This document shows positions 1 through 44,800 of a DNA stretch of 64,000 nt, piece after piece. The position numbers and the translations under genes are program-made. The stretch comes from an uncultured Nitrosomonas sp. (GTDB lineage: Bacteria > Pseudomonadota > Gammaproteobacteria > Burkholderiales > Nitrosomonadaceae), in assembly GCA_964639015.1 (NCBI GenBank), contig CAZXBP010000001.1, positions 10,192-74,191 on the forward strand. Reading direction: 5' to 3'. The notes beneath the pieces were generated by a model, which was not told the origin of the DNA, did no database searches, and saw nothing but the letters and a program-made list of their open reading frames with translations. The stretch's first letter is position 1; the number at the start of each line of letters is the position of its first letter.

Positions 1-380
1 ATATCTAGCCCAATCGATTTTAATGCCTTACTGACATCACACTTGTTGTTGTAGGTTGAACGACTCAAAATCATTTCAGTACTGTGGACTAGGAAGTCAC
101 CCACTGTTGATTCTCTGCATTCAGCCAATTGATGAAATGAAACCCGCAGCTCCGATTTTTTGATCTGCTCAGGTGTGGCAAAAGGCAATTTCCAACCAAT
201 AAGGACACGAATAAAATCTTCAAGAGTTGCGTGCAATAAAACCACTGCTGCTCGCAGCAAATCGGCATCATGCTTTCCGTGCTTTTTCTCAGTATTTGCT
301 AAAGATTCATAGATCGAAACTAGGTTTCTAACCCGCTCAAGGTTTTCCTTGGAACGCTCCTGGAATTGTTGGAATTGCAT
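1..380 (-). CDS. partial CDS (first ~126 codons, runs off left edge): hypothetical, possibly HEPN-like helical protein
   Basis: My own minus-strand translation from the ATG at 380-378 gives MQFQQFQERSKENLERVRNLVSIYESLANTEKKHGKHDADLLRAAVVLLHATLEDFIRVLIGW... and stays open to position 1. It is absent from the ORF track because it has no stop in the window. The ATG overlaps the TGA of the upstream methyltransferase (ATGA). The HEPN-like idea rests only on the LLRAAVVLLHATLEDF helix pattern. Confidence 0.45.
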   Translation of the reverse strand, partial: MQFQQFQERSKENLERVRNLVSIYESLANTEKKHGKHDADLLRAAVVLLHATLEDFIRVLIGWKLPFATPEQIKKSELRVSFHQLAECRESTVGDFLVHSTEMILSRSTYNNKCDVSKALKSIGLD

Positions 381-3300
381 CACTGGTCTACCTTGCAAAT
401 CGAACGGTATAGTGCTTCGCGCCATTCGCCTTGCCGCTCAACCAGGCCGTCTGCGAGTAAGTCGGCGGTTGCTGCACTCCATTGACCGTCCGTAATGCCG
501 GTAGCAGCGAGGATGTCGGCCTTAAAGTGCCAGCCGTCGTGCGTATTTAAAAAATTAAGAATCGCTGTAGCTGGTGCCCCGCCATTGGCAGTAGTTTTGG
601 CCTCTGTGCCGGAATTAAGCGAGGACTGGGTCTGGGTGGCGCGGGCAACACGGTCTGAGGTTCGAGTTCCGGCATTGCCATGCAGTCCTTGGGCGACCTC
701 TTCCTCGTAACGTTCATGATTGAGTTTGAGCAGGCGTTGCAGAACTTCACGCCTAGCCTCATCGGAAATGGTGAAGCGTATACCTTGCTTTATTTTATGA
801 AATCCATGGCTAAGATCTAAATCATTCCAGCCGTATGATGCTGATGTGATAATGTCCATTTGAGTATGTAAGCAACGCAATTCTTGAATTTCATCTGACA
901 CATCACATTGGTCATGAAACCGGTTATAAAAAAGAGTGAGACCAATGCTATTTTTCAAAAGATATTCTTTTCGAAAATCATAATATTTTGAACCGATTGA
1001 TCGCAATTCATTATTAAATTCAGGAAATGGATAAGTTTGAAAGCAGGAAGTTGGTGTATAGCGTACATTTGCAACACCCCCCAATGTCGATGAGGTTTCG
1101 AACACCCAAATCCAATGAAAATTGCTCTGCATCACAGAAAAAAATGCATCGTCATCTACTGTAAAGCAGATTAACTGAACGTCGAAAATCATTTCTGGAT
1201 TGGCCCATGAAACTGCATTCGTTCCACTCACACGGGCTGTTACCAATACTCGTTGTATTTCCGATAATTTCTCATATAGCGCAATCCTTGGTCCACCGTA
1301 TTGCCACCACAGCCTTGCTGCTGTTTTATTAAAGCTGTTTATTGGTTTTAGCGCCAATCGTTCTGGCTTTACTCTCTCTTCAACTATTTTCAAATACTCA
1401 GGGTAATCTGCGGCAACTACAAAAGGATAATCTAAAGGTACTATGCCTTCAGTTAACATTTTATTTCGCTGTGTTTTATTTGCTGTTGCCCAGCTTATTT
1501 CCATGTCTACTTTCTTTAAAGGGTAATTAGAGAAATTTACAATCCATTTGCTTGGTTGCTGAATTGGACTAGAGTTAAAATCTTTACCATTTAAGTACGG
1601 AAGTATGATGTGTTCCTTAGTTGCAGCGGCATGTGAAAATAATTGCTTTACCTCACTTTCTGTTAGTACAAAACCACTACCACAAACATTCGATCCCTGA
1701 AAGGATTTGTTATCATTGGAAAACAATTTATTTGGTGTAGCCATTTGTTTGGACGCTTCTGTTAAGCCAGTAGAAATGTATTCAACCGACTTTCCATCTA
1801 GAAAATAGCTGCCTTTCCAGATGCCTGAGAATAGATGAACTACTGATATTTCCATACTTGCAGAGCCCGGCCAAGGTATACTGGCTCTTGCTGAAACAAT
1901 ACTTAATTTTTCGGTAAGTTGTTCAAGGCATACTGTTTTCGTATCCCCCTGTGATATTGAATTTGTGGCAATAAATCCCGAGCAGCGGTGCTCCTTAATT
2001 AAATATCTTATTCTTAGGAAAAAGAATGCGCATAGGTCTGCGGCCCCCCTTGCTCCAGTTCTTCCATTAGCTAAAAACTTAAAAAGAAAATCCCTGTAAG
2101 CTCTCCCAAAACAAGTGAAAAGCTTTAGTCCACCTAAAAACGGCGGATTCCCTACAATTCCGTCAAATCCACCACGTTCGAACACCTCCGGGAACTCCAG
2201 TGCCCAATGGAAAGGCTTCCGTGGTGGAGTACCTGCCGGAAGATCAATGGAAAGTGACTTTCTCGCCTCTGTAATAATCTTTCGTCCGGTCTCATTGTCG
2301 CCTTCAATATAGGTGGCCGCCCATGTGGAAAGCTTGTCCATGGCGGTATCCAGCGCTCGCTGACTGCTACCGGAAACCAGTGCTTCACCTATCATGGCGT
2401 CGGCGATATGTTCGATATATTCCAGCTTCTGCCGGGCCTGGTGGTCCAGTCGCTCCATGTATTGAATGTTCCGGATATCCTGGATCGGTGTTTCCCTTAG
2501 TTGTTTGCGGAGCGATAGTGCATCCTTGACCGCCGCTTCGATATTGGAAGCGAAGATTGAAATGGTTTTTTTCTTTTCAGGGTGCAGCGAAAACTTGGTC
2601 AACTGCTCTAGCTTATGCAGACCGAGCAGGCTGTCGCCGGAGCGGAGGTTGTGATCGAGAAAGCCGAACGGCCTGCCCTTGGCGAGGGTCACCAGCCAGA
2701 TGGAGAGTTTGGCCAGCTCCACGGCCAGCGGGTTGATGTCCACCCCGTACAGGCAGCGCTCGGCGACCAAGCGGCGGGCGATGGTCAGCCGTTCGTCGAG
2801 CTGGGACGGCAGGGGTTCCTCCGTATCTAGTTGGTCGAGAACTTCGCCGTCGACGGCGATGACTTTTCCGGCCGCCTCTTCGTGCAACCAAGCCTCCACC
2901 AGCTTCTCGCCGAGATAGCGACAGGCCTGAACGAGGAAGGCCCCCGAACCCATAGCGGGGTCGCAGACCTTGAGCTCGAGAATCTCCCGAGACGGCTTGA
3001 GCGTCCATTCTTCGCGGGGCTTGCCACCGGCCGGACCGACGTAAACCACCGGTTCCAGCGTGGTGGTAACGATACTTTCTGTAAGAGATTTCGGAGTGTA
3101 GTGGGTACCTGTCTCTCGCCGGTAGGTCCCAAGGGTGACCATGAACGAATTGTCGCGATAGACGATCGGGTCGTCCCAGGCGTCGGTGCGGATCAGGTTC
3201 GTGAAGGGGTGGATACGCTCGGCCAATGTGGTGTCTCCACCACAGACACCCAACACCCGCCCGAAGACCGTGTCGTCAGCGGGTTTGGATAGGCCGTTCC

Positions 3301-4774
3301 TGATGGCCGATTCGTTCCGCCCGGTGACGTCCAGGACCAATTTGACGAGCGCTGTTTCACCGTCCAGCCACGCCGATTCCAGTTCCGCGAGCGCCACGTT
3401 CGGGTTCTTAGCCTTCTGCGATCCCTGCAGGCCCAGGGTCACGCGGGGAGCGCGAGCCACGGTGTGTTCGAGGAGGCCTTCGTAGACATGCCCGATCTGC
3501 TCTACATCGAGCGCCCGGTAGGACAGCAGCAGCGCCCCGCCGGACTGTTCCAGGATCTGCAGCGAGTTCAAAAGCAGCAGCACGGTGCGGTTGTCGATGG
3601 GTAACGGCGCGGCCGAGGTATCCCGCCAAAGAGTGCCTTTGGCCCGGCCTTCCAGGAACGGAAAACGATCGGGATCGAACAGCGAGCCGCCCAAGGCTGG
3701 CATCCGCAGGCTTTCATGTTCGATACCGCCATAGACGGACCGGAAGACAGCGAGCAACCTGGCCCAGGCATCGTGACGGCGGTCGAGCACCTCCGGTCCG
3801 TGACGATCGGCTTCTTCCGCCAGTTGCCCGCGCAGGGTGGAGACGGCGTAGCACCGGTCGTAGACCGAATCGCCGAGGAGGAGCAGTCCTCGTTCTTCCG
3901 CGCACAGGACGAACACCAGCCGCATCATCACGGTCAGCCCGGCCTCGTAGAGCTCGGTGGGTTTAACGTCGTGGAGGAGTTCCCGGTTGCGGTCCTCGTC
4001 GGCCTTGTCGAGACACTGCACGAGCACCTCGACCGCACGACGAACCTGCTCGCCGAGGGTGTCGGTGACCTCCTCGTGATGCTCGAGGGACTTCGTAAGC
4101 AGAGTTTCCAGGGTGTCTTCCGCCGGGCCGAAACAGCGCCGGACACCGAGCAACGACTGGAAGGCTTTCAGCGTGATCGGCTCCTGGAACCATAGACGTG
4201 CGTACCACGATGCCTGGCTGGAGGTGGAGCCGACTGGCGCGTTGACCAACATCCATCGTTCGCCATCGGTCAGAAGCCCCACGCGCACGCCATGAGCGCG
4301 GCAAAGCAGAGTCATGCGCTCCTGGAGGGAAACGGGCCAGCCGTCATCTCGCTGAACCGATTCGAGATCGGTGTCCGGCGGCAGAACGGCGATGAACAGG
4401 CGCGACTTTCCGTCTGCGGGAGAACGGATGATCCAGTCGGGCTTGAAGGTCCCGGCGTGCTCCTGCGACGAAACGCTTGGGATTTCGTCCGGCCAGTCGC
4501 CCGCGTGGACGAGGGATTCCTGATCGTATTCGAGCATTTCCATCAGCACCAGCCGGACCCATTCCCGGTGCAATTCCGGCAACAGCCTGTCTTCCTGGTC
4601 CACCGCTTCGCGCCATTCCTCATAGGCAGCCCTGAGTTTCTGGCGTCGCGGAGTTGCCACCGCTTCCAGCCCTTGCGGGAACGCTTTGTCCAGCATGGAC
4701 ACGGTCAGGAACGGACCGGATATCTCGATCAGGGAGAGCCATTCGGCGTGTTGGGATAGATTGCCGGTTTTCAT
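380..4774 (-). CDS. large (about 1464 aa) gamma-class N6-adenine DNA methyltransferase of the MmeI / PglX / Type IIG-like family, with a ~560-aa N-terminal extension and a C-terminal TRD-like region
   Basis: GTHYTP (motif X), CDPAMGSGAFL (motif I, nt ~2942-2962) and GIVGNPPF (motif IV, nt 2138-2149). The helical spacer RLVFVLCAEERGLLLLGD and the post-catalytic IATNSISQGDTK...IPWPGSA are typical of MmeI/PglX-type enzymes. The likely start is MKTGNLSQ at 4774, where the ATG overlaps the HNH gene stop (ATGA). Confidence 0.85.
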   Translation of the reverse strand: MKTGNLSQHAEWLSLIEISGPFLTVSMLDKAFPQGLEAVATPRRQKLRAAYEEWREAVDQEDRLLPELHREWVRLVLMEMLEYDQESLVHAGDWPDEIPSVSSQEHAGTFKPDWIIRSPADGKSRLFIAVLPPDTDLESVQRDDGWPVSLQERMTLLCRAHGVRVGLLTDGERWMLVNAPVGSTSSQASWYARLWFQEPITLKAFQSLLGVRRCFGPAEDTLETLLTKSLEHHEEVTDTLGEQVRRAVEVLVQCLDKADEDRNRELLHDVKPTELYEAGLTVMMRLVFVLCAEERGLLLLGDSVYDRCYAVSTLRGQLAEEADRHGPEVLDRRHDAWARLLAVFRSVYGGIEHESLRMPALGGSLFDPDRFPFLEGRAKGTLWRDTSAAPLPIDNRTVLLLLNSLQILEQSGGALLLSYRALDVEQIGHVYEGLLEHTVARAPRVTLGLQGSQKAKNPNVALAELESAWLDGETALVKLVLDVTGRNESAIRNGLSKPADDTVFGRVLGVCGGDTTLAERIHPFTNLIRTDAWDDPIVYRDNSFMVTLGTYRRETGTHYTPKSLTESIVTTTLEPVVYVGPAGGKPREEWTLKPSREILELKVCDPAMGSGAFLVQACRYLGEKLVEAWLHEEAAGKVIAVDGEVLDQLDTEEPLPSQLDERLTIARRLVAERCLYGVDINPLAVELAKLSIWLVTLAKGRPFGFLDHNLRSGDSLLGLHKLEQLTKFSLHPEKKKTISIFASNIEAAVKDALSLRKQLRETPIQDIRNIQYMERLDHQARQKLEYIEHIADAMIGEALVSGSSQRALDTAMDKLSTWAATYIEGDNETGRKIITEARKSLSIDLPAGTPPRKPFHWALEFPEVFERGGFDGIVGNPPFLGGLKLFTCFGRAYRDFLFKFLANGRTGARGAADLCAFFFLRIRYLIKEHRCSGFIATNSISQGDTKTVCLEQLTEKLSIVSARASIPWPGSASMEISVVHLFSGIWKGSYFLDGKSVEYISTGLTEASKQMATPNKLFSNDNKSFQGSNVCGSGFVLTESEVKQLFSHAAATKEHIILPYLNGKDFNSSPIQQPSKWIVNFSNYPLKKVDMEISWATANKTQRNKMLTEGIVPLDYPFVVAADYPEYLKIVEERVKPERLALKPINSFNKTAARLWWQYGGPRIALYEKLSEIQRVLVTARVSGTNAVSWANPEMIFDVQLICFTVDDDAFFSVMQSNFHWIWVFETSSTLGGVANVRYTPTSCFQTYPFPEFNNELRSIGSKYYDFRKEYLLKNSIGLTLFYNRFHDQCDVSDEIQELRCLHTQMDIITSASYGWNDLDLSHGFHKIKQGIRFTISDEARREVLQRLLKLNHERYEEEVAQGLHGNAGTRTSDRVARATQTQSSLNSGTEAKTTANGGAPATAILNFLNTHDGWHFKADILAATGITDGQWSAATADLLADGLVERQGEWREALYRSICKVDQ

Positions 4775-5466
4775 TCCTCCCACCTCACCGAACAAGCCAA
4801 ATACTCGCTAAAGACCATTCGTGTCTCAATTGCATCACTTTGCGTGACGGAGTACCGGTAGCGTCCACGTTGTACATGAATCCAGCCGTTTTCGTAATTC
4901 TTATCGGCGACGAGAAGCCTCTGCATCGCCCGACTTCCGACTTCAGGCCAAAACGCCAATTCGCCGAAACCCAGGTTTTCGAAACAAGAAATGCTCTCTG
5001 GGTCAAGAGAGGTGAATGGAGCAATGCTCACTTCCGCCTCATCTAAAGGAACAAGCAACCCAAGTTCGTAAAGAACATGACCAGCCGCCACCTTCTTGAT
5101 GACATTCATAACCCGATCGTGTTCGACATCGAAAATAACTCCGTCATCCGTTTCTCTTCGAGCTCTTGCAATACGTTCAGCCAATCCAAGTGCGTGAAGT
5201 AGGGATTTCTTGGTAGTCTCACGTTGAAGTGAGTTTGAGTCAGCTGTTCCCGAGATAACGCAATCAATCAGACAAGCCATGTATTCTTCATCTAAGGAAT
5301 ATGCATGGTTGCATCTGGCGCAAGCATCCACGATAGGGAGATCAGATGGATAGGGTTCATCGAGAAACACTCTCGGAGGCACGTGTTCTCGTGTTTCAGG
5401 AAGCCCACCACAGTAGATGCACATGCCTCGAGTGCGGTCATCCGAGTAATCATCGAAATGCTTCAT
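4771..5466 (-). CDS. HNH-family endonuclease-like protein (231 aa)
   Basis: The N-terminal segment CIYCGG...REHVPPRVF...DACARCNH fits the CxxC...H...CxxC(N/H) HNH zinc-finger nuclease pattern. Its start overlaps the SNF2 stop (TAATG) and its stop overlaps the methyltransferase start (ATGA). Confidence 0.65.
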   Translation of the reverse strand: MKHFDDYSDDRTRGMCIYCGGLPETREHVPPRVFLDEPYPSDLPIVDACARCNHAYSLDEEYMACLIDCVISGTADSNSLQRETTKKSLLHALGLAERIARARRETDDGVIFDVEHDRVMNVIKKVAAGHVLYELGLLVPLDEAEVSIAPFTSLDPESISCFENLGFGELAFWPEVGSRAMQRLLVADKNYENGWIHVQRGRYRYSVTQSDAIETRMVFSEYLACSVRWEE

Positions 5467-8400
5467 TAGGCCGCACCTTCTCCTATGTGTGTCTGAGGAA
5501 CGAGGAACACGACGGCCACCGGGAACGTTCGATCCGCCGGGATGGCGTAGTGTTTCTCGATCGCGGTCTTTTCTTCTTCCCGCTCTTCCGGAATCCGGGC
5601 CAAACGGGCTTCCAAAGCTTGGGTATCCTTCTTGATTTGTCCGAGTTCTTCATCACTGAAGAGTGACAACTGAACAGGCTTGCCGTCTTGGCCCAATTCC
5701 TTCCTGATGCTCCCCTCCAACTCGTCGAGGATCGTCAGTACGTCGGCAACTTCGTTTTTCATCCGCCTGTCTAGGGTGTTCTCGAGAAACTTCAAGCGGT
5801 CCTTGGATCTCGCTTCGACGGCTGCCATGAGAGCGTTTTCGTGGCGCTTGAACCTGTCCTTCAGAACGTCGAACAGCGCCTGGTCGGGTTGGATAGGCGA
5901 ACCTTGGGCAACCAGAGCTTCCAGTTTGCCGACCTGGGCGATGCGGGCGAACCGTTTGTGTTCGATTTCGCCACCGGCGAGGGTCAGTTCTTCGTGAAGG
6001 CGATGGTGATCTCCGCCGGTGATCACCAAGCGCGACCAAACCGCCACCGCCGGGACTCGCAATTCACTGTCGGGTAAGGTTCGGAACGTCACGCGGTGAA
6101 GTCGTTTGACGTCGTCGAGCTTCCAGATCTCCTCGCGAAGCAGTCGCAGACACATCTGCACCAGCCGGTGGTTGAGATGGGCCAGGACGACATCGTCTCT
6201 GCCTTTGGCGACATCGTGATCGAAGGTGATCGGGCGGCGAACGCCGGTATGGGGATGTTCCAGCCCGACGGTGGCTCTGCCCCAGGAGCCGGGCAGGATG
6301 GGTACTTCGAAAACACTTCTCTTTTCACCGTGACTTGATCTAATGGGCTTGAGCGATGGCTTTTCCGCCAGTTCCAAAGCGACCTCAACCGCACGCGCAA
6401 TGTGTTCTGGCGACAGATGAAAATCGTTCTTCGCTTCCATAAGTTTGTCGTGAAGTCGGGCGATGCGCTCCTGTAGACGCTTTTCCGCCGTGACGAACTT
6501 TCTTGCCGAGGCGGCTTTTGCTTCTGCATAGGCGGTATCCAGACCACTGCGTCGACCGAGCATAGCCTCTTCGATCTGTCGGGCGATAACCGGTCCGACA
6601 CTACCGAGATCCTCCCGAATGGTGTCGATTTTGAGGACCGCACGCATCAGATACTCGTGATCGCCTGAGACATCTCCGGGTTTCCCGTGGCTTGATCGGG
6701 TATTGGCGGCCGCACTCGCGGAGAAGCCTTTCCCCACCGGATGCCAGATGAAAACGGCCTCTTCCTTCTGTCCGTGGCGGTCGATACGACCATTACGCTG
6801 TTCCATGACATTCGGATTCCACGGAATCTCGACATGGATGAGGTAGTTGCAGTGGTTCTGCAGGTCGATACCTTCCGAGGCCGCGTCGGTCGCGAGCAGG
6901 ATGCGAACCGGTGAAACGTCTGGATGCGCCTGGAATGCGGCTTTGCCCGATTCGCGCTCGTCCGGCAGCATGCTTCCATGAAGGTACATCAGGCGATCGC
7001 CGCCGTAGCCGTTGGCAGTGAGAATCTGATGGAGCCACGAATGGGTGGCCCGGTATTCGGTGAACAGAATCACTCGCTTTCCGTTCCACCGACCATCGGT
7101 CTTCAGATGGCTCTCGAGCCATTCGAGAATGGCGTTGGCTTTCGAGTCGACGCGGTTGCGTGCTTTCTCAGACCATGCGGTGAGCCGGTCGAGCATGTCT
7201 CTCTGCTCGCGTGACAGAGGTGGAGCGAGTTCGCCCACCACCTCGACCGCTTCATGCTGGGCTTCTTCGACCAGAGAGTCGTCCGAATACTCCTCTTCGG
7301 TTTTCAGGATCGCCTTACGCAGAATGCGATCGTCCATGGCGTCGCGATCGCCTTTGGGCTTGCCGCGTTCGAGAGTGTCCCGATGTTTTGCAAGTGTGAG
7401 CGCGAAAGCCATGGGCGAGGAAAAGAGGCGTTTCTTGAGAAGCATATGAACAAAATCGGTTCCATATTCGAAGCGCGTGCCCTTGACGCTCTTCGAACGA
7501 TCGACCGTGTACTCTCCGAGCAAGGCGTGGATCTGCCGCTCCTCCTCGGGGTAGTCGATTTCGAGACCTTCGAGCTTGCGTACCGGAAACACCGGCTTGC
7601 CGTTCGCGTCGACGATGTCGCTCTTCAGTCGGCGAACCATGACGCGGTGGAGCTGTTTCTCGTCCGGCATCACCGTCCTGGCGAACCGCTGATCGTCCAG
7701 CAACTCCAGCAACGAGGTGAACGACTCCTGATATCCGTTGTGGGGTGTTGCGCTCAAAAACAGCCGATGGGTGAAGTGAGGAGCGAGCGACCGGATCAGC
7801 CGCGTTCTCTGGCTTTCCAGGGCATACATGGATGCCGACGCCGGTGCGACGTTGTGCGCCTCGTCGACGACCAGAATGTCGAATTTTCTCGGATAGATAA
7901 TGTGAGGAGGGAGTACGTCCTTCAACAACCGGAAACCCTCGCCGCTCTTCATCCAGTCCATCGAGGTGACGAGACGTGGATAGGACGTCCAAGGATTCAC
8001 GTGGATGCCGCGTTCGCGACGAAGGCGCTTGATGTACTCGGTGTCGACGATCCGAAACTCGAGGCCGAATTTTTCCTGCATCTCGGTCTGCCATTTGACC
8101 TGCAGGCTGGCAGGGCAAACGACGAACACGGTCCTGGCGCGATGACGGACGAGCAGCTCCTGGATGACCAGTCCCGCCTCAATCGTTTTACCCAAGCCAA
8201 CATCGTCCGCGATGAGGAGATTGACGCGAGCCATCTCGACGGCTCGAACCAACGGATCGAGCTGGTAGTCCTCAATGGTTATCCCGCTCCGGAAAGGCGA
8301 TTGCAGAAAAGAGCGATCCGCGTTGGTGACGGCTCCCCAGCGAACGGCGTCGAGAAAGGCCTCCAGGCGGTCGTCGCTGTCCCAGCCGGTGATCGATGGC

Positions 8401-8654
8401 AGACCCGCCTTTTCCAGGACCTGGGCTCCGGCCTCCATCTGCCAGACGACCTGGATTTCTTCGCCCATGGAATCTTCGTCCAGGGAGGACAGGCCGACGA
8501 GGTGTTGATCACCGTTGCTCGCCGGTGACAAGGCTCCACTGGAAACATCGGTGACCACCCATTGACGACGTCGGACTTCGACGAATTGACCGGGCTCGGG
8601 AATGGCACCGAAACGAACGACACCGCTCGCCGAATTTGCACTGCTTGCTGTCAT
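5466..8654 (-). CDS. SNF2/RapA-family (DrmD-like) superfamily-2 helicase/translocase, 1062 aa
   Basis: Motif I LIADDVGLGKT, motif II VVDEAHNV, motif III LSATPHNG. The C-lobe has LLATDAASEGIDLQ and WNPNVMEQRNGRIDRHGQ. A ~400-aa extension of unknown function follows at the C-terminus. Confidence 0.9.
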   Translation of the reverse strand: MTASSANSASGVVRFGAIPEPGQFVEVRRRQWVVTDVSSGALSPASNGDQHLVGLSSLDEDSMGEEIQVVWQMEAGAQVLEKAGLPSITGWDSDDRLEAFLDAVRWGAVTNADRSFLQSPFRSGITIEDYQLDPLVRAVEMARVNLLIADDVGLGKTIEAGLVIQELLVRHRARTVFVVCPASLQVKWQTEMQEKFGLEFRIVDTEYIKRLRRERGIHVNPWTSYPRLVTSMDWMKSGEGFRLLKDVLPPHIIYPRKFDILVVDEAHNVAPASASMYALESQRTRLIRSLAPHFTHRLFLSATPHNGYQESFTSLLELLDDQRFARTVMPDEKQLHRVMVRRLKSDIVDANGKPVFPVRKLEGLEIDYPEEERQIHALLGEYTVDRSKSVKGTRFEYGTDFVHMLLKKRLFSSPMAFALTLAKHRDTLERGKPKGDRDAMDDRILRKAILKTEEEYSDDSLVEEAQHEAVEVVGELAPPLSREQRDMLDRLTAWSEKARNRVDSKANAILEWLESHLKTDGRWNGKRVILFTEYRATHSWLHQILTANGYGGDRLMYLHGSMLPDERESGKAAFQAHPDVSPVRILLATDAASEGIDLQNHCNYLIHVEIPWNPNVMEQRNGRIDRHGQKEEAVFIWHPVGKGFSASAAANTRSSHGKPGDVSGDHEYLMRAVLKIDTIREDLGSVGPVIARQIEEAMLGRRSGLDTAYAEAKAASARKFVTAEKRLQERIARLHDKLMEAKNDFHLSPEHIARAVEVALELAEKPSLKPIRSSHGEKRSVFEVPILPGSWGRATVGLEHPHTGVRRPITFDHDVAKGRDDVVLAHLNHRLVQMCLRLLREEIWKLDDVKRLHRVTFRTLPDSELRVPAVAVWSRLVITGGDHHRLHEELTLAGGEIEHKRFARIAQVGKLEALVAQGSPIQPDQALFDVLKDRFKRHENALMAAVEARSKDRLKFLENTLDRRMKNEVADVLTILDELEGSIRKELGQDGKPVQLSLFSDEELGQIKKDTQALEARLARIPEEREEEKTAIEKHYAIPADRTFPVAVVFLVPQTHIGEGAA

Positions 8655-9769
8655 TTAGATCGACAGTTCCTCCGTTTCGACCGATACACTCTCTTGGTCG
8701 CATCCGACACATGCGATAACAGGCTCGCACCGATAACCTCTCCGAGGGTGACGGGAACGGCATTACCGATCAATCTTCCAATGGATTTTTGACATATTTG
8801 TTCCCCAGGTCGAACGAATTCGTAATGCCGTGGAAAGCTTTGGAGAATCGCTCCTTCTCTCAAGGAAATAGCCCTATTTTGTTCGGGGTGTCCGAAGCGG
8901 CCGTTGCCGAAACCGTAGAATTGGGTTGTCATGGTTGGAGCGGGATTATCCCAAGTCATGCGGCCATAGACACTCGGATAAGTTTTTCCAGAAGACCTTT
9001 TGTGGCAGTCGACCACCAGATCTTTGGGCCAATCACGCCAAGTTCCACCAGGCCTGGAGACTTCTATCCGGCGCATGTTGATTTCTGAGAGAGCCGAACA
9101 TTGATGCAGCGGATCTTCATGGTAACTCGTTCCGGCATGAATTGCGGGAAGATCGCCGATTGCTTCCTTGACAGTTTGTGGTTTCTTACCGATTTCAGAT
9201 GGTGAGAGCAAGGATATGCTACCAAGTTTCGATGCCAACAGCACCAGACGATTACGTTGCTGTGGAACTCCGTATTCGGCGCAATTGACGACTTGATACA
9301 CTACCGAATACCCGTTACCCTTGAGATTGGTCACGAATTCGTCGAAGACATTTTGTTTGACGAGCCGAGGCACGTTCTCCATTGTCACCAGATCTGGTGA
9401 CAGCTCATTGACAAATCTCGAGAACTCCCGCAGGAGCCACCATCGCTTGTCGGCTTCTGTCGCTTTCTGGTTGTATCTGGAAAAGGTCTGACAAGGAGCG
9501 CAACCGGCCAGGAGCTTGATTCCATTCTTTCTGAAATGGGTCGCCAGCTCACCTGCTGACAGATCTTCCACCGACTTGAGCAGAAATTTAGCATTGTTGT
9601 TGATGATATAGGGGTATTCACAAGCCGGATCTATGTCCACGCCAAGACAAACATTGACTCCGGCCTTGACAAGACCGTGTGTCAGTCCACCCGCACCGCA
9701 GAATAAGTCGACGGCATAGATATTTCGCCCTTCCGTCGCTCTGACCTTTGTCCGTGATCCGTTTTTCAT
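8651..9769 (-). CDS. dcm: DNA (cytosine-5)-methyltransferase
   Basis: DLFCGAGGLTHG (motif I), GCAPCQTFS (motif IV, catalytic Cys), MENVPRL (motif VI), QQRNRLV (motif VIII) and IGNAVP (motif X). I prefer the start MKNGSRTK at 9769, which forms an ATGA overlap with the HTH gene stop, over the longer track ORF starting at 9904. Confidence 0.9.
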   Translation of the reverse strand: MKNGSRTKVRATEGRNIYAVDLFCGAGGLTHGLVKAGVNVCLGVDIDPACEYPYIINNNAKFLLKSVEDLSAGELATHFRKNGIKLLAGCAPCQTFSRYNQKATEADKRWWLLREFSRFVNELSPDLVTMENVPRLVKQNVFDEFVTNLKGNGYSVVYQVVNCAEYGVPQQRNRLVLLASKLGSISLLSPSEIGKKPQTVKEAIGDLPAIHAGTSYHEDPLHQCSALSEINMRRIEVSRPGGTWRDWPKDLVVDCHKRSSGKTYPSVYGRMTWDNPAPTMTTQFYGFGNGRFGHPEQNRAISLREGAILQSFPRHYEFVRPGEQICQKSIGRLIGNAVPVTLGEVIGASLLSHVSDATKRVYRSKRRNCRSK

Positions 9770-9984
9770 TGCTTGGAATCTTTGTCTTCCTTGAGCGAAT
9801 CGGCCGATGCGCCCCCAGCTTCGATCCATGAATCTACCTGGTCCTTCTTGAATTTCCAGAGACGACCCATGCGATGCGCTGGCATGTCGAATCGTTCGAT
9901 CCAACGATACACGGTATCACTGCTGACCCCAAGGTATTTACATATCTCATCCACCGATAACCAGCGATCTTCCATCTCGGTCAT
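9766..9984 (-). CDS. small excisionase/MerR-type helix-turn-helix DNA-binding protein (72 aa); first gene of the operon and possible controller
   Basis: LSVDEICKYLGVSSDTVYRWIERFDMPAHRMGRLWKFKKDQVDSWI matches the HTH_17 / AlpA / excisionase-type pattern. Confidence 0.7.
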   Translation of the reverse strand: MTEMEDRWLSVDEICKYLGVSSDTVYRWIERFDMPAHRMGRLWKFKKDQVDSWIEAGGASADSLKEDKDSKQ

Positions 9985-10020
9985 TTATTTGCTCTTGTCG
10001 TTCGCTTTTCCTTTTTCGTA

Positions 10021-10040
10021 ACATCCACCTTGGTGGATGT
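10021..10040. promoter_or_regulatory. palindrome ACATCCACC-TT-GGTGGATGT, 37-56 nt upstream of the HTH gene start; candidate operator
   Basis: A 9+9 inverted repeat read directly from the sequence. Two TG(A/T)CAGTTA direct repeats follow at 10071-10079 and 10094-10102. Confidence 0.35.
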
Positions 10041-10444
10041 CCAGTCAACGAGCTTGACGGTACCAACAGCTGACAGTTAAACCTAACGATCATTGTCAGT
10101 TAGAGCTCTGCCCACCCCATATAATGAAACACCCTTTTAGAGTACTTCCTCGGCATCCAACGCTAGGGACACCAAGGGTGGCCCTTGTTAGAGACAGCCG
10201 AATAAGCGTTCAATAGGGAAACATCTCGCATCGCTGCATCCGTGCGCGATAGTTCTTTGCACCCAAAAGTCGTGTTGCTTCACGTTAGAACCCTCAATTG
10301 CCATAAACAAACTGATAACAAAGAATGACAACACCATCAGCTGATCTTTATTGTTTCGTTCAAATTTCACCCAATCGGTGATAATAATTCAAGTGACATC
10401 AAAGCCGAAGATAGTCGGCAAGTTACATTTCATACAGTCAATTG

Positions 10445-10651
10445 TCAACCGCTTTTAGCCGCAAAAGACCGCAAATAGTCACTTAAAAGCGCTCCCAGTT
10501 GCCAGGAGCCAACTATTCCATCAAAAACTGCGCTTTCATTCGATAAATTCACGCCAAGATGTTGTAGCTGCACAAAATAGTGGCCATAGAGACTTTTTGG
10601 CATTGTTCCAAGAAGTGCACTCAATCCTACCATTGTCCGAAAAACATACAC
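10445..10651 (-). CDS. hypothetical small protein
   Basis: An ORF that starts 8 nt after the stop of the preceding minus-strand gene, so it looks operonic. No recognisable motif. Confidence 0.25.
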   Translation of the reverse strand: MYVFRTMVGLSALLGTMPKSLYGHYFVQLQHLGVNLSNESAVFDGIVGSWQLGALLSDYLRSFAAKSG

Positions 10652-10658
10652 TTTCGCA

Positions 10659-11027
10659 TTAAATTCTTATCGTTCTAGTCTTTTTTTGAAAATCAATCTG
10701 AGTCAAACTCGCTTTCTCCCCATCATACGCAACAACAACAACCTTCCCAGCAACAGGCTTACCGTTCACGATATTTAATTGATGCACAATAAAATCTTTC
10801 CCAGTCTGCTGATAAAAAACTTCGTTTTCCTTGTCGACGTATAAAATTTTACCTTCATACTGTTTTTTATCTTCGGGTTTCTGCGCCAGGTAAATATTGT
10901 AAATACCAGGTTTGATGCCTTCTTCCACTTTCTTGATGGTGCCGGTCGTCTCCCATTCGTTATTAACCAGGGCCTGAATGATCTTTTGTCCGTTCATTAC
11001 AACAATGCGCAGTTTCTGGGTTACCAT
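10659..11027 (-). CDS. hypothetical protein downstream of korB (122 aa)
   Basis: A clean ORF in the same orientation as korB. I cannot assign a family from the sequence. Confidence 0.45.
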   Translation of the reverse strand: MVTQKLRIVVMNGQKIIQALVNNEWETTGTIKKVEEGIKPGIYNIYLAQKPEDKKQYEGKILYVDKENEVFYQQTGKDFIVHQLNIVNGKPVAGKVVVVAYDGEKASLTQIDFQKKTRTIRI

Positions 11028-11097
11028 TTTTGTTTTTCTTTTGTCTAGTCGTTAGTTGATTGTTAGTGGGCTGGGCTGCATACATGAATTGATTTAA

Positions 11098-12222
11098 CTA
11101 ACCTGCTTCCTGATTGGCAAGCTCATCAAGGATTTTGAACAGATCAAAATTTGCCGTTCTTTCCGTTCCGTATAAAAAGGCAATCAATTGCAACGCGCCA
11201 CTGCCTTTGGCAGAGAAGCGCCCGTCCTGCAATGCATTGATGGTGTATTGAATCATATTCGAACAGCTCCTGCCTTCCTCAAAATAATCTTTAACCTTGG
11301 TTGTCAGCAGTTTCTGATCATCTTTGGGCAACTCACGCACTAAATCTTTTGGGCTGCGCTTGTCTTTCTTGATCAGATGATAGATCGAATCGAGCAGGGT
11401 AATCTGTGCACTTTTTTGGTTTGGCTTTTGCTGATCGGCCATGGCATCGGTTTTTTCTTCGGCTTGTTGTGTTTGTTCATCCGAATCGATGGCGCCTTTT
11501 TGTTTTTTCTGCTCCAGGAATTTGCCGAAGTGTTTCACGTCCAGTCGGGATATTTCCTCCGGTGCACTTATGTTTATCCAGTTGATGACTTCCGCTTTGC
11601 TGACCTTGTAGTATCGGGTCAAATCATAGATGGCTGTCACATCGGTGCAACGGCCTGACCGGTAGACTTCATCGATAGGATCAGGCAAATCGAGCAATGC
11701 GGCATGTGTGGTGATATACGGATTGGTTTTGCCAAGTTGCCTGGCAATATCGGACTTGGTTTTACCGGCTGCTAATTGCCGTCCGATAAAATCAGCAATT
11801 TCTCTTGATGTCAGATTATCCCGCTGTAGATTCTCAATGACCTGATCTGCTTCGCTGTAATCGGTATCGATAAATGCCGGTATGGTTTTCAATCCGGCAT
11901 TTATACTGGCCCGATAGCGTCGGGCGCCATGATTGATAATATAGGTACCCGGTTTATCCGGATTGGGACGCACCGATATCGGTGATTTCACGCCGCGTAA
12001 TTTTACGGTTTCCGTCAATTCGCGCAGTGTATCCTGATTAAACTCCTTTCTCGGTTGATGAATGTCTTCAATAATCAGGTCAATTTCGATTTCAGTTGCG
12101 CCTGTTGGTGTCGCTGGTTGTGCTGGTTGTGCTGGTTGTGCTGGTTGTGCTGGTTGTGCTGGTTGTGCTGGGTCTGCTGTTAGTATAGTTTTTTTAGGAG
12201 CCCCTCTTTTCTTGTCTGACAT
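11098..12222 (-). CDS. korB: ParB/KorB-family DNA-binding protein (ParB N-terminal nuclease-like domain plus HTH)
   Basis: IEDIHQPRKEFNQDTLRELTETVKLRGVKSPISV...INHGARRYRAS...ENLQRDNLTSREIADFIG is the ParB-box pattern. I prefer the start MSDKKRGAPKK at 12222. The N-terminus contains (PAQ)6. Confidence 0.85.
   Translation of the reverse strand: MSDKKRGAPKKTILTADPAQPAQPAQPAQPAQPAQPATPTGATEIEIDLIIEDIHQPRKEFNQDTLRELTETVKLRGVKSPISVRPNPDKPGTYIINHGARRYRASINAGLKTIPAFIDTDYSEADQVIENLQRDNLTSREIADFIGRQLAAGKTKSDIARQLGKTNPYITTHAALLDLPDPIDEVYRSGRCTDVTAIYDLTRYYKVSKAEVINWINISAPEEISRLDVKHFGKFLEQKKQKGAIDSDEQTQQAEEKTDAMADQQKPNQKSAQITLLDSIYHLIKKDKRSPKDLVRELPKDDQKLLTTKVKDYFEEGRSCSNMIQYTINALQDGRFSAKGSGALQLIAFLYGTERTANFDLFKILDELANQEAG
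12113..12166. repeat. six perfect tandem copies of the 9-bp unit GCTGGTTGT (plus a degenerate 7th to 12175), encoding (PAQ)n in KorB
   Basis: Read directly from the sequence. The repeat is in frame with korB. Confidence 0.9.
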
Positions 12223-12549
12223 AAGATATCTGCTTATATTTTTAGTTGTATTTTTATTATGCTGCGAATGCTTTTGATGCACATTTAATCCCTTTGGCAA
12301 GACAGTAAATACCATTGGAATCATGTACGATTGAAAATGCATCAGTCAATCATTACTGACTTCATTTCTTGTATAACGAAATTATATCGTAGAACATTGC
12401 CATTCCCTCCCTGATAGCATTGTTTGAAAATTCTATATTCCTGCTTAACTTGTTCTCTTTATTTTCCGGCTGCTTTTTTATTGCTCTTCTTTTGGTGTTT
12501 GCTGGTTTAAAATAGCAGCATTAAAGCCTTAAAACAATGACAAATGCAC

Positions 12550-13088: not shown

Positions 13089-14102
13089 GTGAATATGACA
13101 ATGCAAAGCACATCAGCATCACCATTACCCGATTCTCAAACTGCACCAACCTCGGCCATATCAGCGATGTCGGTCAAGGAGCGCGCAAAGCGCAAGCTTG
13201 AACGCGATGCCCGTGAAATCGTATCTGCGCTGCAAGACCCGGATACGGTGGAAATCATGGTCAATGCCGACGGTCGTATATGGCTTGAAAAGCTTGGTCA
13301 AAAGATCACCTGCATCGGCAGCCTTCAAGCCGCACAGACTGAAGCGGTTATCAAGACCGTTGCCGGATATCACGGCAAGGAAGTCACCCGATACAATCCG
13401 ATTATTGAAGGCGAATTCCCACTCGACGATTCCCGCTTTGCCGGACAACTGCCACCGGTAGTTACCTCCCCTACTTTTGCCATCCGTAAAAAAGCGGTTG
13501 CCATTTTCACACTCGATCAATATGTCGAAAATGGTGTGCTGTCACCGAGACATTGCAATGTCATCAAACAAGCCGTGCGCGAACACCGTAATATCCTGGT
13601 CATCGGCGGTACCGGTTCCGGCAAGACAACACTGATCAATGCCATTATTTTCGAGATGGTGCTCAACGATCCGGATGAGCGCATTTTTATCCTGGAAGAC
13701 ACTGGCGAGATTCAATGCGCCGCACAGAATTTTGTGCAGTATCACACCACGCTCGATGTCGACATAACGCAACTACTCAAAACCACGTTGCGCATGCGTC
13801 CCGACCGCATACTCGTTGGTGAAGTTCGAGGCGCCGAGGCCCTTGATCTGCTGGATGCCTGGAACACCGGCCATGAAGGTGGCGCAGCGACTTTGCATGC
13901 GAATGATGCGTTGTCCGGACTGACAAGGCTCGAATCACTCATATCACGTAATAACCATGCACCAACTGAAATCAAGCCGCTGATTGCTGAAGCGGTGGAT
14001 GTAGTTATCCATATTGCACGCACAAAGCATGGCAGACAAGTACACGAAATACTTGAAGTCTGCGGTTTTAAAAGAGGGAATTACCAGACCCGGCGATTGT
14101 AA
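13089..14102 (+). CDS. trbB: P-type conjugative transfer ATPase TrbB (VirB11 family)
   Basis: Walker [22 protein letters not shown] and the His box [11 protein letters not shown]. Confidence 0.9.
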
Positions 14103-14122
14103 TACTGTTTGAGGAGTTCATC

Positions 14123-14524
14123 ATGAAGCTGAATCAGAACAACCATAATATCTTTTTGTTTTACACACTGTTGATTCTCATGTTTCTGGGATTGCTTCTG
14201 TTCACCAACAACACCCTGGCAGCAGTTGGCGCCGGTGGTGCGCTGCCGTATGAAACATGGCTGGTAAATCTGCGTAATTCCGTAACTGGTCCGGTTGCAT
14301 TTACCTTATCCATCGTCGGCATTGTTGTGGCCGGTGGCATATTAATTTTTGGCGGTGAATTGAATGCGTTTTTCCGCACGCTGATTTTTATCGTGCTGGT
14401 GATGGCGTTACTGGTCGGCGCCAACAACATCATGACCAATCTGTTTCAAGGAGCGGTGATTCCGGTTGATGTGGATACAGCAAACCAACCAGAAACAGAA
14501 ATTTTAGCAGCACCCGAAATGTAA
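14123..14524 (+). CDS. trbC: TrbC/VirB2-family pilin precursor
   Basis: Its size, signal peptide, two hydrophobic segments and position after trbB. Confidence 0.75.
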
Positions 14525-14565
14525 CAGCAGTAATTGTAACTTTCTCGTTTTACAGGAGGTCTGTT

Positions 14566-14877
14566 ATGGCATTACGCACCATACCGATCAGACAATCGGG
14601 AAACCGTCCGAATCTCTTCATGGGCGGTGACCGCGAACTGGTGATGTTCTCAATCCTGATTGCCGCCACGTCCATTTTTGCGGCAATGGAAATCAAGACC
14701 ACGCTGTTCGGTATTGCGTTGTGGATATTCGCGTTGTTTGCATTGCGCCTGATGGCCAAACACGATCCGCAATTACGCCATTTGTACCTGCGCCAACTGC
14801 GCTACAAAAAATATTATCCGGCCAGAAGTACGCCGTTTACCATCAACCCGCCACATATGGAAAAGCAATTCCAATGA
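14566..14877 (+). CDS. trbD: TrbD (VirB3-like)
   Basis: A 103-aa membrane protein between trbC and trbE. Its stop overlaps the trbE ATG (ATGA). Confidence 0.75.
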   Translation: MALRTIPIRQSGNRPNLFMGGDRELVMFSILIAATSIFAAMEIKTTLFGIALWIFALFALRLMAKHDPQLRHLYLRQLRYKKYYPARSTPFTINPPHMEKQFQ

Positions 14878-17411: not shown

Positions 17412-18205
17412 GTACCATCAGTGACTTAACCGAAAAAATCAAAAAGCGCCGGTTCAGCCTCACTGGCAAAGCCGATATCCGCATGGATGATGAGATCGAT
17501 TCTCAAACCTTTATAGAAGGCGGACGCCGAACCGGCGAATCGGAGAATCCCTATCTCTCCGCCCGCCGCACCTGGAACGATCATATGCGATCCGTCCAAT
17601 CATCACGCAACATGTGGCAAGTACTGGCGATTCTGTGCCTGATGATTGCATTGGCCGGAGTTGGTGGCATGATTTATATCGGCAGCCAATCGAAATTTAT
17701 CCCGTATGTGGTACAAGTCAACAATCTTGGTGAAGCAATTGCGGTGTCGCGTGCTGATGTCGCAGCGGTTGCCGATCAACGTGTCGTGCATGCCTCACTT
17801 GCATCATTTATTAACGATGTCAGAATGGTCACACCGGATATCGCATTGCAGCGTAAAGCCATCTTCAGGGCATATGCGATGCTCAAAACCAACGATCCGG
17901 CAACGGCCAAAGCGAATGAATGGTTTAACGCTCACGCAGACAACAGCCCGTTCAAGCGGGCGGAAACGCTAACGGTGAGTGTTGAAATCATTTCCGTCAT
18001 TCCACAGTCGCCCGAAACCTGGCAGGTAGACTGGCTGGAAAAGGTCTATGACCGGCAGGGTCACCAACTGGAAGCGCCGTTCAAAATGCGCGCATTACTG
18101 CGCGTATATCACCGGTCACCGACACAAAGCACAACCGAAGAACAGATACGGAACAATCCGCTGGGTATTTATATCCAGGATTTCTCCTGGTCACGACAAT
18201 CGTAA
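17408..18205 (+). CDS. trbF: TrbF (VirB8-like)
   Basis: A single TM segment followed by a periplasmic domain. ATGA overlap with trbE. IncP gene order. Confidence 0.75.
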   Translation: MSTISDLTEKIKKRRFSLTGKADIRMDDEIDSQTFIEGGRRTGESENPYLSARRTWNDHMRSVQSSRNMWQVLAILCLMIALAGVGGMIYIGSQSKFIPYVVQVNNLGEAIAVSRADVAAVADQRVVHASLASFINDVRMVTPDIALQRKAIFRAYAMLKTNDPATAKANEWFNAHADNSPFKRAETLTVSVEIISVIPQSPETWQVDWLEKVYDRQGHQLEAPFKMRALLRVYHRSPTQSTTEEQIRNNPLGIYIQDFSWSRQS

Positions 18206-18217
18206 CGAGGTTCCACC

Positions 18218-19671: not shown

Positions 19672-19714
19672 ACAGCAACAGAAAAAGGCAAAAGGAAACG
19701 AGGGAATCACTATC

Positions 19715-21969: not shown

Positions 21970-21991
21970 ATTCTGTTTAAAGGAGATCATC

Positions 21992-44799: not shown

Positions 44800-44800
44800 G

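Follow-up and report, generated by a model that had tools for sequence, protein, structure and literature searches.

A probable DrmMII-containing class 1 DISARM operon, with embedded HNH-like and HEPN genes, on an IncP-like ICE of a Nitrosomonas-like chromosome

INTRODUCTION

DISARM systems occur in classes set out by Ofir et al. (2018), which we use as the summarizing sections of two later reports present them (10.1101/2021.12.28.474362; PMC9142583). Class 1 is recognized by DrmD, an SNF2-like helicase (pfam00176) encoded ahead of the core genes; by DrmMI, a large N6-adenine methyltransferase; and by DrmA, a helicase-domain protein (pfam00271) of ~1290 aa. Some class 1 systems have an additional C5-methyltransferase, DrmMII. 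One of these, from Serratia sp. SCBI, has been tested experimentally (10.1101/2021.12.28.474362; PMC9142583); its phenotypes and the mechanism of its DrmAB proteins have been published, and it marks DNA with both m6A and m5C. Extra same-strand genes can be nested within BREX, DISARM and Type I R-M operons, frequently so in DISARM, and for one embedded protein, the HEPN protein HEC-08, defence has been demonstrated (10.1101/2024.01.29.577857). Operons of the MORC/paraMORC kind, for their part, contain SNF2 helicases, cytosine methylases, Vsr and HNH nucleases (Iyer, Abhiman and Aravind 2008; PMC2292703).

The locus described here shares with the Serratia system the co-directional genes for DrmD, DrmMI and a C5 methylase, with DrmA next, and the relatives of this locus share DrmA-DrmB-DrmC as well. 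Unlike the Serratia operon, it begins with an HTH gene and has HNH-like and HEPN genes embedded within it, and its sequences come from a Desulfuromonadales-like lineage but reside on a Nitrosomonas-like ICE.

RESULTS AND DISCUSSION

Organization of the operon

The window—the 64,000-nt stretch of DNA that was analysed—begins with six co-directional minus-strand ORFs (positions 1–9984) whose stop and start codons overlap, preceded by a leader with two candidate control elements:

10420..10478, minus strand: promoter-like element; three TGCGGYT-type direct repeats, TTGACA (10443–10448), 17-nt spacer, TAACTT (10420–10425)
10021..10040, minus strand: palindrome ACATCCACC-AA-GGTGGATGT with perfect 9-bp arms, in the leader, 37–56 nt upstream of the HTH start
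9766..9984, minus strand: HTH_17/excisionase-family DNA-binding protein, 72 aa; putative MAD1-like regulator whose gene heads the operon
8651..9769, minus strand: C5-cytosine DNA methyltransferase, DrmMII-type, 372 aa from ATG (Pfam, PADLOC)
5466..8654, minus strand: DrmD, SNF2-family helicase of class 1 DISARM, 1062 aa (NCBIfam, PADLOC, Pfam)
4771..5466, minus strand: HNH-like (beta-beta-alpha-metal finger) protein, 231 aa, with a C-terminal domain lacking family assignment; accessory, embedded (variable slot A)
380..4774, minus strand: DrmMI, large N6-adenine methyltransferase of class 1 DISARM, 1464 aa (PADLOC, Pfam)
1..380, minus strand: RiboL-PSP-type HEPN protein, first 126 of 201 codons; accessory, embedded (variable slot B)

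The six overlapping genes of the initial annotation are thus all present, and every motif that it quoted can be found in the translated dcm, SNF2, HNH-like and MTase proteins. Its junctions hold at ATGA (9766–9769, 8651–8654 and 4771–4774) and TAATG (5464–5468), but not at 378–382, read as ATGA; this last junction is TGATG, a 1-nt overlap (a GTG at 381–383, an alternative start, would make it GTGA). The five genes that the window contains whole show no interruption and are translationally coupled, and intrinsic terminators are not in excess within the six-gene block (14 found, 11.6 expected). Because ORFs of 1062 and 1464 codons match known families with E=0, they cannot be due to chance. A search of positions 1–11200 against Rfam gave no match.

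Taken with the sequence that lies to its left, positions 1–10478 very probably represent the promoter-proximal part of a DrmMII-containing class 1 DISARM operon, which an IncP-like ICE in a Nitrosomonas-like chromosome carries as cargo gained by horizontal transfer. The order is promoter, HTH, DrmMII, DrmD, slot A (HNH-like), DrmMI, slot B (HEPN), DrmA. Thus, the operon was rightly seen at the outset as a methylation-based, helicase-containing defence operon with m6A and m5C methylases—it is the front half of DISARM—and rightly placed outside BREX, but the claim that it fits no canonical DISARM layout fails on its full-length DrmD and DrmMI. Nor is the co-occurrence of the two methylase classes new; class 1 DISARM with drmMII was already published, for Serratia sp. 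SCBI.

DrmD, DrmMI and the C5 methylase

The SNF2 protein matches the NCBIfam equivalog for DrmD (NF038317, DISARM_DrmD) over model positions 2–1020 of 1021 at 1418.6 bits (cut-off 610), and the PADLOC DrmD model at 1500 bits. It contains the Pfam domains SNF2-rel_dom and Helicase_C, the motifs GLGKT (aa 153), DEAH (aa 264), SATP (aa 301) and QRNGRIDRHGQ (aa 619), and is 73–93% identical to DrmD in related loci; the SNF2-like helicase that class 1 DISARM has ahead of its core genes is, then, present here.

So is the large N6-adenine methyltransferase: the 1464-aa protein matches PADLOC DrmMI (PDLC02643) at 1817.5 bits over aa 6–1383, and has the motifs GTHYTP (aa 556), DPAMGSGAFL (aa 605) and NPPF (aa 876). 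Looked up as an exact protein, with either start codon, it had no record. Its first 700 aa are conserved, whereas the C-terminal half, including the target-recognition region, is divergent and low in GC; we infer that this half is a swapped specificity module.

With MmeI-like Type IIG enzymes and with PglX of BREX, DrmMI shares the Eco57I/MmeI methylase core (Eco57I, MmeI_Mtase and N6_Mtase all score above the Pfam cut-offs), and it reaches 1469 bits against the PADLOC Type IIG model. The likeness weakens in the target-recognition and N-terminal domains, where MmeI_TRD (21.3 bits versus 27) and MmeI_N match only below cut-off, the latter weakly (E 3.7e-4) and over the non-catalytic part alone. 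In a Type IIG enzyme, a single polypeptide provides gamma-class m6A methylation, target recognition (TRD) and cleavage by an active PD-ExK nuclease. MmeI carries PD…ExK; the aligned nuclease-like region at the N-terminus of DrmMI reads PD…FIAV, with no evident ExK, and an active fused nuclease is therefore doubtful. BREX was rejected. DrmMI scores 20–30 bits against the NCBIfam PglX models, whose cut-offs are 400–900; PglZ, BrxC and BrxL have no PADLOC match among the six proteins, so that the operon, unlike BREX, is without them; and such BREX-family matches as PADLOC gives (the SNF2 protein with BrxHI/BrxHII, the methylase with PglX) are weak and local.

The C5 methylase has all five catalytic motifs (FCGAGG aa 23, PCQ aa 92, ENV aa 131, QQRNR aa 170, GNAVP aa 335) and matches Pfam DNA_methylase (pfam00145) at 2.3e-53 (182 bits). 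Over its full length, it scores 299.8 bits as DrmMII in PADLOC and 300.2 bits as MTase_II. Because the DrmMII score is no better than that for a generic Type II methylase, assignment to DISARM rests on conserved position: the gene lies directly upstream of DrmD in related loci L002–L013, and it supplies the additional C5-methyltransferase of DrmMII-containing class 1 systems.

Leader and HTH gene

The pattern TGCGGYTNNNNGCGGTTGACA, which describes the promoter-like element, occurs once in the window, versus 0.00 times expected, and the element is kept 100–130 nt upstream of the HTH gene in six related loci (L003, L005, L006, L008, L010 and L012). It is probably the promoter of the operon. The palindrome is a candidate operator or leader hairpin; imperfect palindromes (TCCRCC..GGYGGA) occupy the equivalent leader position in L003, L005, L008 and L027. 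Other repeats in the leader are short and at chance level.

The small HTH protein matches Pfam HTH_17 (3.8e-16), TIGR01764 (71.6 bits; cut-off 28.8) and PADLOC mad1 (2e-14), and its gene precedes that of the C5 methylase in most related DISARM loci (e.g. L003–L006, L008–L010, L012, L013, L021, L027 and L029). Membership of MADS, which calls for a MAD1 HTH protein together with the mandatory MAD6–8, was rejected: the NCBIfam MADS1 match is slightly under the cut-off (74.1 bits versus 80), and no further mad protein was matched. An excisionase of the ICE was rejected, too, since the HTH gene and promoter head DISARM loci in unrelated genomes, and the integrase of the ICE is 42 kb away.

Beyond the left edge

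As the initial annotation supposed, the operon runs on to the left of the window. A metagenome contig (L014), 100% identical to positions 1–4578, extends 734 nt further; it completes the HEPN gene, the stop of which lies ~225 nt past the edge, and ~0.22 kb left of the window a DrmA homologue then starts, with a 4-nt overlap. Over the N-terminal 170 aa, after which the contig stops, this homologue shares 84% identity with DrmA from L015; the helicase domain falls beyond these 170 codons. Used as a query, the 170-aa N-terminus retrieved fragments only, and no identical protein. In a second sample the HEPN protein is again identical, and the ORF after it runs uninterrupted for at least 588 codons.

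Genes for drmA, a DUF1998 protein and a PLD protein immediately to the left were what the initial annotation had named as evidence against its own reading. The beginning of a drmA homologue is there, on L014, and DrmA-DrmB-DrmC follow DrmMI in all 13 related loci with 8 kb or more of sequence beyond it, with PADLOC scores in relatives of 1690 bits for DrmA, 263 bits for DrmB (PF09369, DUF1998/MZB) and 331 bits for DrmC (PF13091, PLD). By analogy with every relative, DrmB and DrmC would be expected after DrmA in this element also.

Two variable slots

The genes that flank DrmMI occupy slots whose contents differ even between close relatives (DrmD ~90% identical). In relatives, the two slots are empty or contain an Mrr-like nuclease, PDC-S41, PDC-S39, or a helicase with DUF2290. 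PDC-S41 and PDC-S39 belong to the 'PDC' embedded genes of PADLOC; unlike these candidates, the HNH-like and RiboL-PSP HEPN families are uncatalogued occupants, and neither has a model in PADLOC-DB v2.0.0.

The part of the HEPN gene within the window matches only weakly, under the Pfam cut-off. The full-length 201-aa protein (P0001), 100% identical to this part, carries PF18735, and it bears out the original HEPN-like call. The Rx4-6H active-site motif that HEPN RNases have within their HEPN fold lies beyond the window, in the form RRHxxxH; its residues R141, R142, H143 and H147 vary little or not at all among 18 homologues. Homologues 71–73% identical lie directly ahead of DrmA in L015–L017.

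The HNH-like protein matched nothing among the Pfam, PADLOC and NCBIfam models. HNH (His-Me finger) nucleases are marked by a beta-beta-alpha-metal motif in which a His and an Asn are catalytic, and many also have CxxC zinc ligands. The protein has CxxC at aa 16–19, REH at aa 26–28 and CxxCN at aa 49–53, and C16, C19, H28, C49, C52 and N53 are invariant in 42 homologues. Its AF2 model (pLDDT 89) and predicted secondary structure (strands 25–28 and 45–48, helix 50–72) go with a profile match to HNH endonuclease 4h9d of only E=0.055, and with a Foldseek match to a phage HNHc protein that has a probability of 0.94 over 54 residues, but E=0.096; Foldseek of the model against PDB and BFVD gave no significant whole-fold match.

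The HNH-like family is large (>1300 homologues). In loci retrieved with the HNH-like protein, homologues at least 50% identical always lie between DrmD and DrmMI, and the two such loci that reach far enough have DrmA-DrmB-DrmC, or DrmA, farther on. More distant homologues are mostly outside DISARM. Of 12 relatives retrieved with DrmMI, none has the HNH-like gene in slot A, which is empty in four and holds unrelated genes in eight (occupants in relatives being none, an Mrr_cat + Zn-ribbon protein, or PDC-S41, which has a weak Cas4-like match at its N-terminus). Its earlier casting as a core effector, a stand-alone HNH nuclease, does not survive this comparison. Across loci with an HNH-like gene in slot A, identities of the HNH-like protein and DrmD are 90/90, 77/90, 61/70, 56/63 and 50/67%. 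Judged from these sequences, the HNH clade has diverged roughly in step with DrmD, which suggests long residence in slot A and would be compatible with a functional tie between this clade and DISARM.

Alternative readings

The HNH-like family is the sole uncharacterized piece of the operon, and it tends to lie near C5-methylase and Vsr genes. Outside DISARM, 17 HNH loci have 4 kb or more of sequence on each side; in nine of them a C5 methylase or Vsr gene lies no more than 5 kb away, and Vsr is the commonest immediate neighbour of the family (6/100). This might mean that the family represents a novel nuclease, encoded on its own and functionally linked to m5C modules (C5 methylase/Vsr). Its DISARM-resident clade would then provide the DNA-cleaving step otherwise missing from class 1 DISARM, where DrmC is dispensable, and slot A would be more than a landing pad: a position at which nucleases (HNH, Mrr-like or PDC-S41) can be exchanged. 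We consider this reading improbable. The same neighbours, together with the Vsr that follows DrmC in relatives and the C5 methylase in those HNH-containing DISARM loci whose upstream region can be seen (L019–L021, L027 and L029), could also be taken to indicate an interleaved, Type II-like m5C R-M pair made up of the C5 methylase and the HNH-like protein, with a Vsr repair gene elsewhere, in which the HNH protein cuts sites that lack C5 methylation. We judge this, too, unlikely, for the same C5 methylase (~81% identical) occurs with and without the HNH gene, the 10 kb around some HNH homologues (L023) contain neither a methylase nor Vsr, and an Eco29kI-type nuclease already partners the methylase beside the HNH homologue of L025. 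The C-terminal domain of the HNH-like protein, moreover, is conserved where the methylases are 25–40% identical, a poor fit to specificities that co-vary. As for MORC/paraMORC operons, relatives of this locus have a paraMORC-like HATPase_c_3 gene and Vsr after DrmC, whereas the window has no GHKL ATPase or Vsr within it. That paraMORC-type systems use the HNH-like protein as their nuclease does not hold as a general rule: a GHKL ATPase lies near just one non-DISARM HNH locus.

Two other readings concern the operon as a whole. It might be a self-contained, undescribed, helicase-coupled restriction-like system in which the DrmD-like SNF2 protein, by translocation, brings the HNH-like protein to DNA lacking both methyl marks, without DrmA, DrmB or DrmC. 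Translational coupling of the six genes would suit such a system, as would the constant place of the closer HNH homologues between DrmD and DrmMI; SNF2 operons with HNH nucleases have been noted in comparative work (PMC2292703), and DrmC, being dispensable, does not settle which protein is the nuclease of DISARM itself. The drmA gene directly after the HEPN gene on an identical contig largely refutes it, however, and the lack of HNH in the slot in all 12 DrmMI-retrieved relatives and the mostly non-DISARM setting of distant homologues make it scarcely credible. Alternatively, the locus could be a decayed DISARM remnant in which the methylases, DrmD and the add-ons alone are intact; drmA, drmB or drmC would be truncated or lost, and the block could now serve mainly as methylation or anti-restriction cargo of the ICE. 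DrmA is documented for 170 codons only, the genes for DrmMI, DrmD and PDC-S41 are split in some relatives (L011, L016, L018 and L019), and an ArdC-like anti-restriction gene is present on the same ICE. Against such decay stand the five uninterrupted, translationally coupled genes, the run of at least 588 codons in the second sample, and the full gene set in every relative that extends far enough; we regard it as very unlikely.

How the operon might work

If this DISARM operon behaves as that of Serratia does, DrmMI would place m6A on a non-palindromic site and DrmMII m5C on a palindromic one, in the DNA of host and ICE alike. The DrmA-DrmB helicase complex would be auto-inhibited until incoming DNA with single-stranded 5' ends switched it on, more strongly so if that DNA were unmethylated, and phage replication and plasmid establishment would be blocked as a result. 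DrmD would help against some phages, and DrmC would be dispensable. The small HTH protein probably regulates the operon through the conserved promoter and palindrome, much as might the MAD1-type first genes of other methylation-based systems, to which we liken it. The HNH-like and HEPN proteins seem likely to be independent embedded defence genes, co-transcribed with DISARM but outside its core machinery: a DNA nuclease in the one case and an RNase-type toxin in the other.

The operon belongs to a known system against phages and plasmids, here with two add-on nuclease-type genes, and the rest of it begins just to the left of the window; as a finding it is therefore largely ordinary. Two methylase classes and nested genes are both in the literature already, and their discovery value is small. 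What the locus does illustrate is cassette exchange at two fixed slots and, probably, replacement of the specificity half of DrmMI. The HNH-like family, so often beside Vsr or C5-methylase genes, offers a cheap candidate for defence testing.

The element and its host

A megablast search with the block found nothing in E. coli genomes and, among plasmids, a single weak match, to drmD of Deinococcus. GC in the operon is 0.53–0.59 (2-kb windows, positions 2001–10000), compared with ~0.44 in the flanks. Carriage on an ICE, proposed at the start, is supported by the genes nearby—KfrB, KorB, Trb, TraG, TraI and an integrase—and the context includes tRNA-Met and rpoD. The ICE additionally encodes an ArdC-like anti-restriction gene. 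DISARM, which acts against conjugation and phages, thus rides here on a conjugative element that has an anti-restriction gene of its own.

Identity of the operon

The operon at the left edge of the window comprises the leading genes of a class 1 DISARM system, of the kind that contains DrmMII, with two accessory genes embedded in it. All six minus-strand ORFs placed here by the initial annotation are found at their positions, and every catalytic motif it quoted is located at defined residues:

9766-9984, minus: HTH protein, 72 aa
8651-9769, minus: C5 methylase, 372 aa
5466-8654, minus: SNF2 protein, 1062 aa
4771-5466, minus: HNH-like protein, 231 aa
380-4774, minus: N6 methylase, 1464 aa
1-380, minus: partial ORF, running out of the window

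Four of the five overlapping junctions also read as annotated (three ATGA, one TAATG); the fifth, given as ATGA, is TGATG instead. Pfam matches among the operon proteins are HTH_17, DNA_methylase, SNF2-rel_dom with Helicase_C, and Eco57I/MmeI_Mtase; the partial ORF has a HEPN match below threshold only.

The SNF2 protein matches the NCBIfam equivalog DISARM_DrmD end to end (1418.6 bits; cut-off 610) and PADLOC DrmD at 1500 bits, and the 1464-aa methylase matches PADLOC DrmMI over residues 6-1383 (1817.5 bits). BREX PglX was rejected as the identity of the methylase, its models giving 20-30 bits against cut-offs of 400-900. For the C5 methylase, the DrmMII and generic Type II methylase models of PADLOC score equally, at ~300 bits each. 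The HTH domain is of the excisionase family and comes nearest to MAD1, with which the MADS system begins; at 74.1 bits it stays slightly below the cut-off of 80. Neither the HNH-like protein nor the partial ORF finds a match in PADLOC. One PADLOC-DB model labelled DrmA, PDLC02572, aligns with DrmD over its full length (1531.8 bits); the label is probably an oddity of the library that could lead automated calls astray.

Beyond the window edge

A metagenome contig of 5312 nt, L014, matches window positions 1-4578 with zero mismatches and extends 734 nt past the edge. It encodes P0001, a 201-aa protein carrying PF18735, whose first 126 residues are the partial ORF at 100% identity, so that the HEPN gene is completed within the extension. 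A 4-nt overlap leads into the next gene, which is covered for 170 residues; over these, its product is 84% identical to DrmA from a related locus, L015 (1283 aa). As a search query this fragment retrieved no identical full-length protein. In a second sample, an ORF of 588 codons or more comes after the same HEPN protein. The source contig itself carries rpoD along with DrmD and the HEPN protein.

Scanning species-representative genomes for DrmMI yielded 12 loci, mostly in Desulfobacterota-type MAGs. The C5 methylase and DrmD precede DrmMI in all 12, and the HTH gene does so in most. Downstream in these relatives come genes of ~1290 aa, ~615 aa and ~260 aa, which are DrmA, DrmB and DrmC (PADLOC 1690, 263 and 331 bits, respectively). 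When these loci are pooled with those retrieved through the HEPN and HNH proteins, DrmA-DrmB-DrmC is present in every one that reaches at least 8 kb past DrmMI (13/13), and a HATPase_c_3 gene and vsr come next in many. From this gene order the layout is HTH, DrmMII, DrmD, [slot A], DrmMI, [slot B], DrmA, DrmB, DrmC. The claim that the operon lies outside known layouts thus falls, on the DrmD and DrmMI model matches, the drmA start on L014 and the trio in relatives. Of the genes that were to make it class 1 DISARM if found to the left—drmA, a DUF1998 gene and a PLD gene—the start of a drmA homologue is there on L014, while DrmB and DrmC are seen in relatives only.

Its non-canonical look, dual methylation, is already known too: a preprint on the system of Serratia sp. 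SCBI reports that class 1 DISARM sometimes includes drmMII (10.1101/2021.12.28.474362). That six-gene system modifies ACACAG with m6A and MTCGAK with m5C, gives protection from both dsDNA and ssDNA phages, lowers conjugation, and does not need its drmC (same preprint). In the activation model of the DrmAB structure paper, 5'-overhang DNA displaces a trigger loop, and methylated DNA lowers ATPase activity.

Several relatives carry further variations. A 660-aa HATPase_c_3 (paraMORC-like) gene, Vsr, or both, lie 3' of DrmC in L004-L006, L008, L009, L011 and L015-L017, and upstream of DrmD in L019/L020; with the C5 methylase, these have the look of another module, based on m5C, that surrounds DISARM. 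L010 has two tandem DrmMI paralogues (7895-11947 and 14693-18502). In L016 (3979-8261) DrmMI comes in two pieces, of 921 and 500 aa, with the break precisely in front of the TRD; in the near-identical twin, L015, it is intact.

Exchangeable genes in two slots

Slot A, between DrmD and DrmMI, is empty in 4 of the 12 DrmMI-retrieved loci (L002-L013). The other eight have stand-alone genes unrelated to HNH there: five encode a 211-aa protein with Mrr_cat and a zinc ribbon, and three encode PDC-S41 (675 aa, with a Schlafen-group-3 helicase domain and a weak Cas4-like N-terminus). An HNH-like gene occupies the slot in none of the 12. Such genes do occur in slot A of other DISARM loci (L019-L022, L027-L029), in slot B, between DrmMI and DrmA (L056, L065), and 3' of DrmC (L006). 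In relatives, slot B may have no occupant; otherwise it contains PDC-S39, a helicase and DUF2290 pair, or a kinase-containing cassette with the HEPN gene last. Because slot contents vary in this way, the HNH and HEPN genes are exchangeable occupants rather than core parts. Same-strand genes embedded in DISARM, BREX and Type I systems have been described, and several defend alone (10.1101/2024.01.29.577857). In L015-L018, a 72-aa ORF right before the HEPN gene holds 40 residues that copy the DrmA N-terminus at 85% identity, possibly a trace left when a cassette inserted into the start of drmA.

The full-length HEPN protein has an RRHxxxH motif, positioned off-window, that is conserved across homologues. 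Among close homologues (52-75% identical) are copies embedded in DISARM, immediately 5' of DrmA; distant ones (~40% identical) come after a gene for a molybdopterin oxidoreductase, in surroundings unrelated to defence. In two large contigs that conserve this pairing, with no defence genes nearby, the distant homologue overlaps the stop codon of the 700-aa oxidoreductase gene (L108 and L109, 8001-8603).

What interest remains lies only in the uncharacterised HNH-like family, which has at least 1397 homologues of ~230 aa, with invariant C16, C19, H28, C49, C52 and N53 and a strongly conserved C-terminal domain. Resemblance to HNH domains is limited to the first ~55 residues, and the AlphaFold model, though confident (pLDDT 89), matches no entry of PDB or BFVD significantly over the whole fold. 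Five of 80 loci in a metagenome survey place the family in DISARM. Elsewhere its immediate neighbours are heterogeneous, many of them of defence type: Vsr is the commonest (6/100), followed by GmrSD, C5 methylase, integrase, PD-(D/E)xK nucleases and AIPR. Outside DISARM, 17 loci (within L030-L106) are flanked by 4 kb or more on each side, and nine of them have a C5 methylase or Vsr within 5 kb; a GHKL ATPase is nearby in one non-DISARM locus only. A 2008 paper noted operons in which SNF2 and HNH genes are combined with cytosine methylases and Vsr (PMC2292703). The HNH-like protein may partner C5 methylases in restriction, may be a modification-dependent enzyme, or may simply be a frequent island neighbour.

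Promoter-like element and DrmMI mosaicism

Upstream of the HTH gene are two features:

10420-10478: promoter-like element (three TGCGGYT repeats, TTGACA, 17 nt, TAACTT)
10021-10040: perfect palindrome, after an extra leader

The promoter-like element is common to relatives, distant DISARM loci included, which links the HTH gene with the DISARM module and not with ICE excision. The extra leader between element and gene (~340 nt, 10060-10400) is in the window only, and has no Rfam match and no clear repeat ends.

Over residues 1-700, DrmMI shares 90-100% identity with relatives and GC is ~0.63; past residue 900 identity is 10-45% and GC 0.35-0.41. Both switches coincide at the NPPF motif (window break near 2100-2700). 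By sequence, this mosaic is consistent with replacement of the specificity (TRD) half.

Mobile-element context

As the initial annotation suspected, the operon lies on, or next to, an integrative conjugative element (ICE):

10659-52899: IncP-like ICE
10659-11027: KfrB
11098-12342: KorB
13089-23293: trb genes
38917-39903: IS DDE transposase
41794-44862: ArdC-like protein, 1022 aa
45654-47552: TraG
47549-49189: TraI relaxase
51772-52800: tyrosine integrase, abutting tRNA-Met
52823-52899: tRNA-Met
52918-55068: chromosomal rpoD, next after tRNA-Met

Right of the operon come, in order, KfrB, KorB, a Cro-like regulator and TrbB-TrbL; beyond the trb genes are the ArdC-like protein, TraG, TraI, TraJ/K/L/M-like genes and the integrase. 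The ICE's cargo includes a LysR regulator, a sigma-54 activator, a flavin monooxygenase and the IS. With these genes to its right and a GC content of 0.53-0.59 (2-kb windows, 2001-10000) against ~0.44 in the flanks, the operon is high-GC cargo of the ICE. The closest backbone, at 74% identity, is a Nitrosomonas plasmid without DISARM beside kfrB, and the rpoD protein cluster takes in Nitrosomonas MAG proteins.
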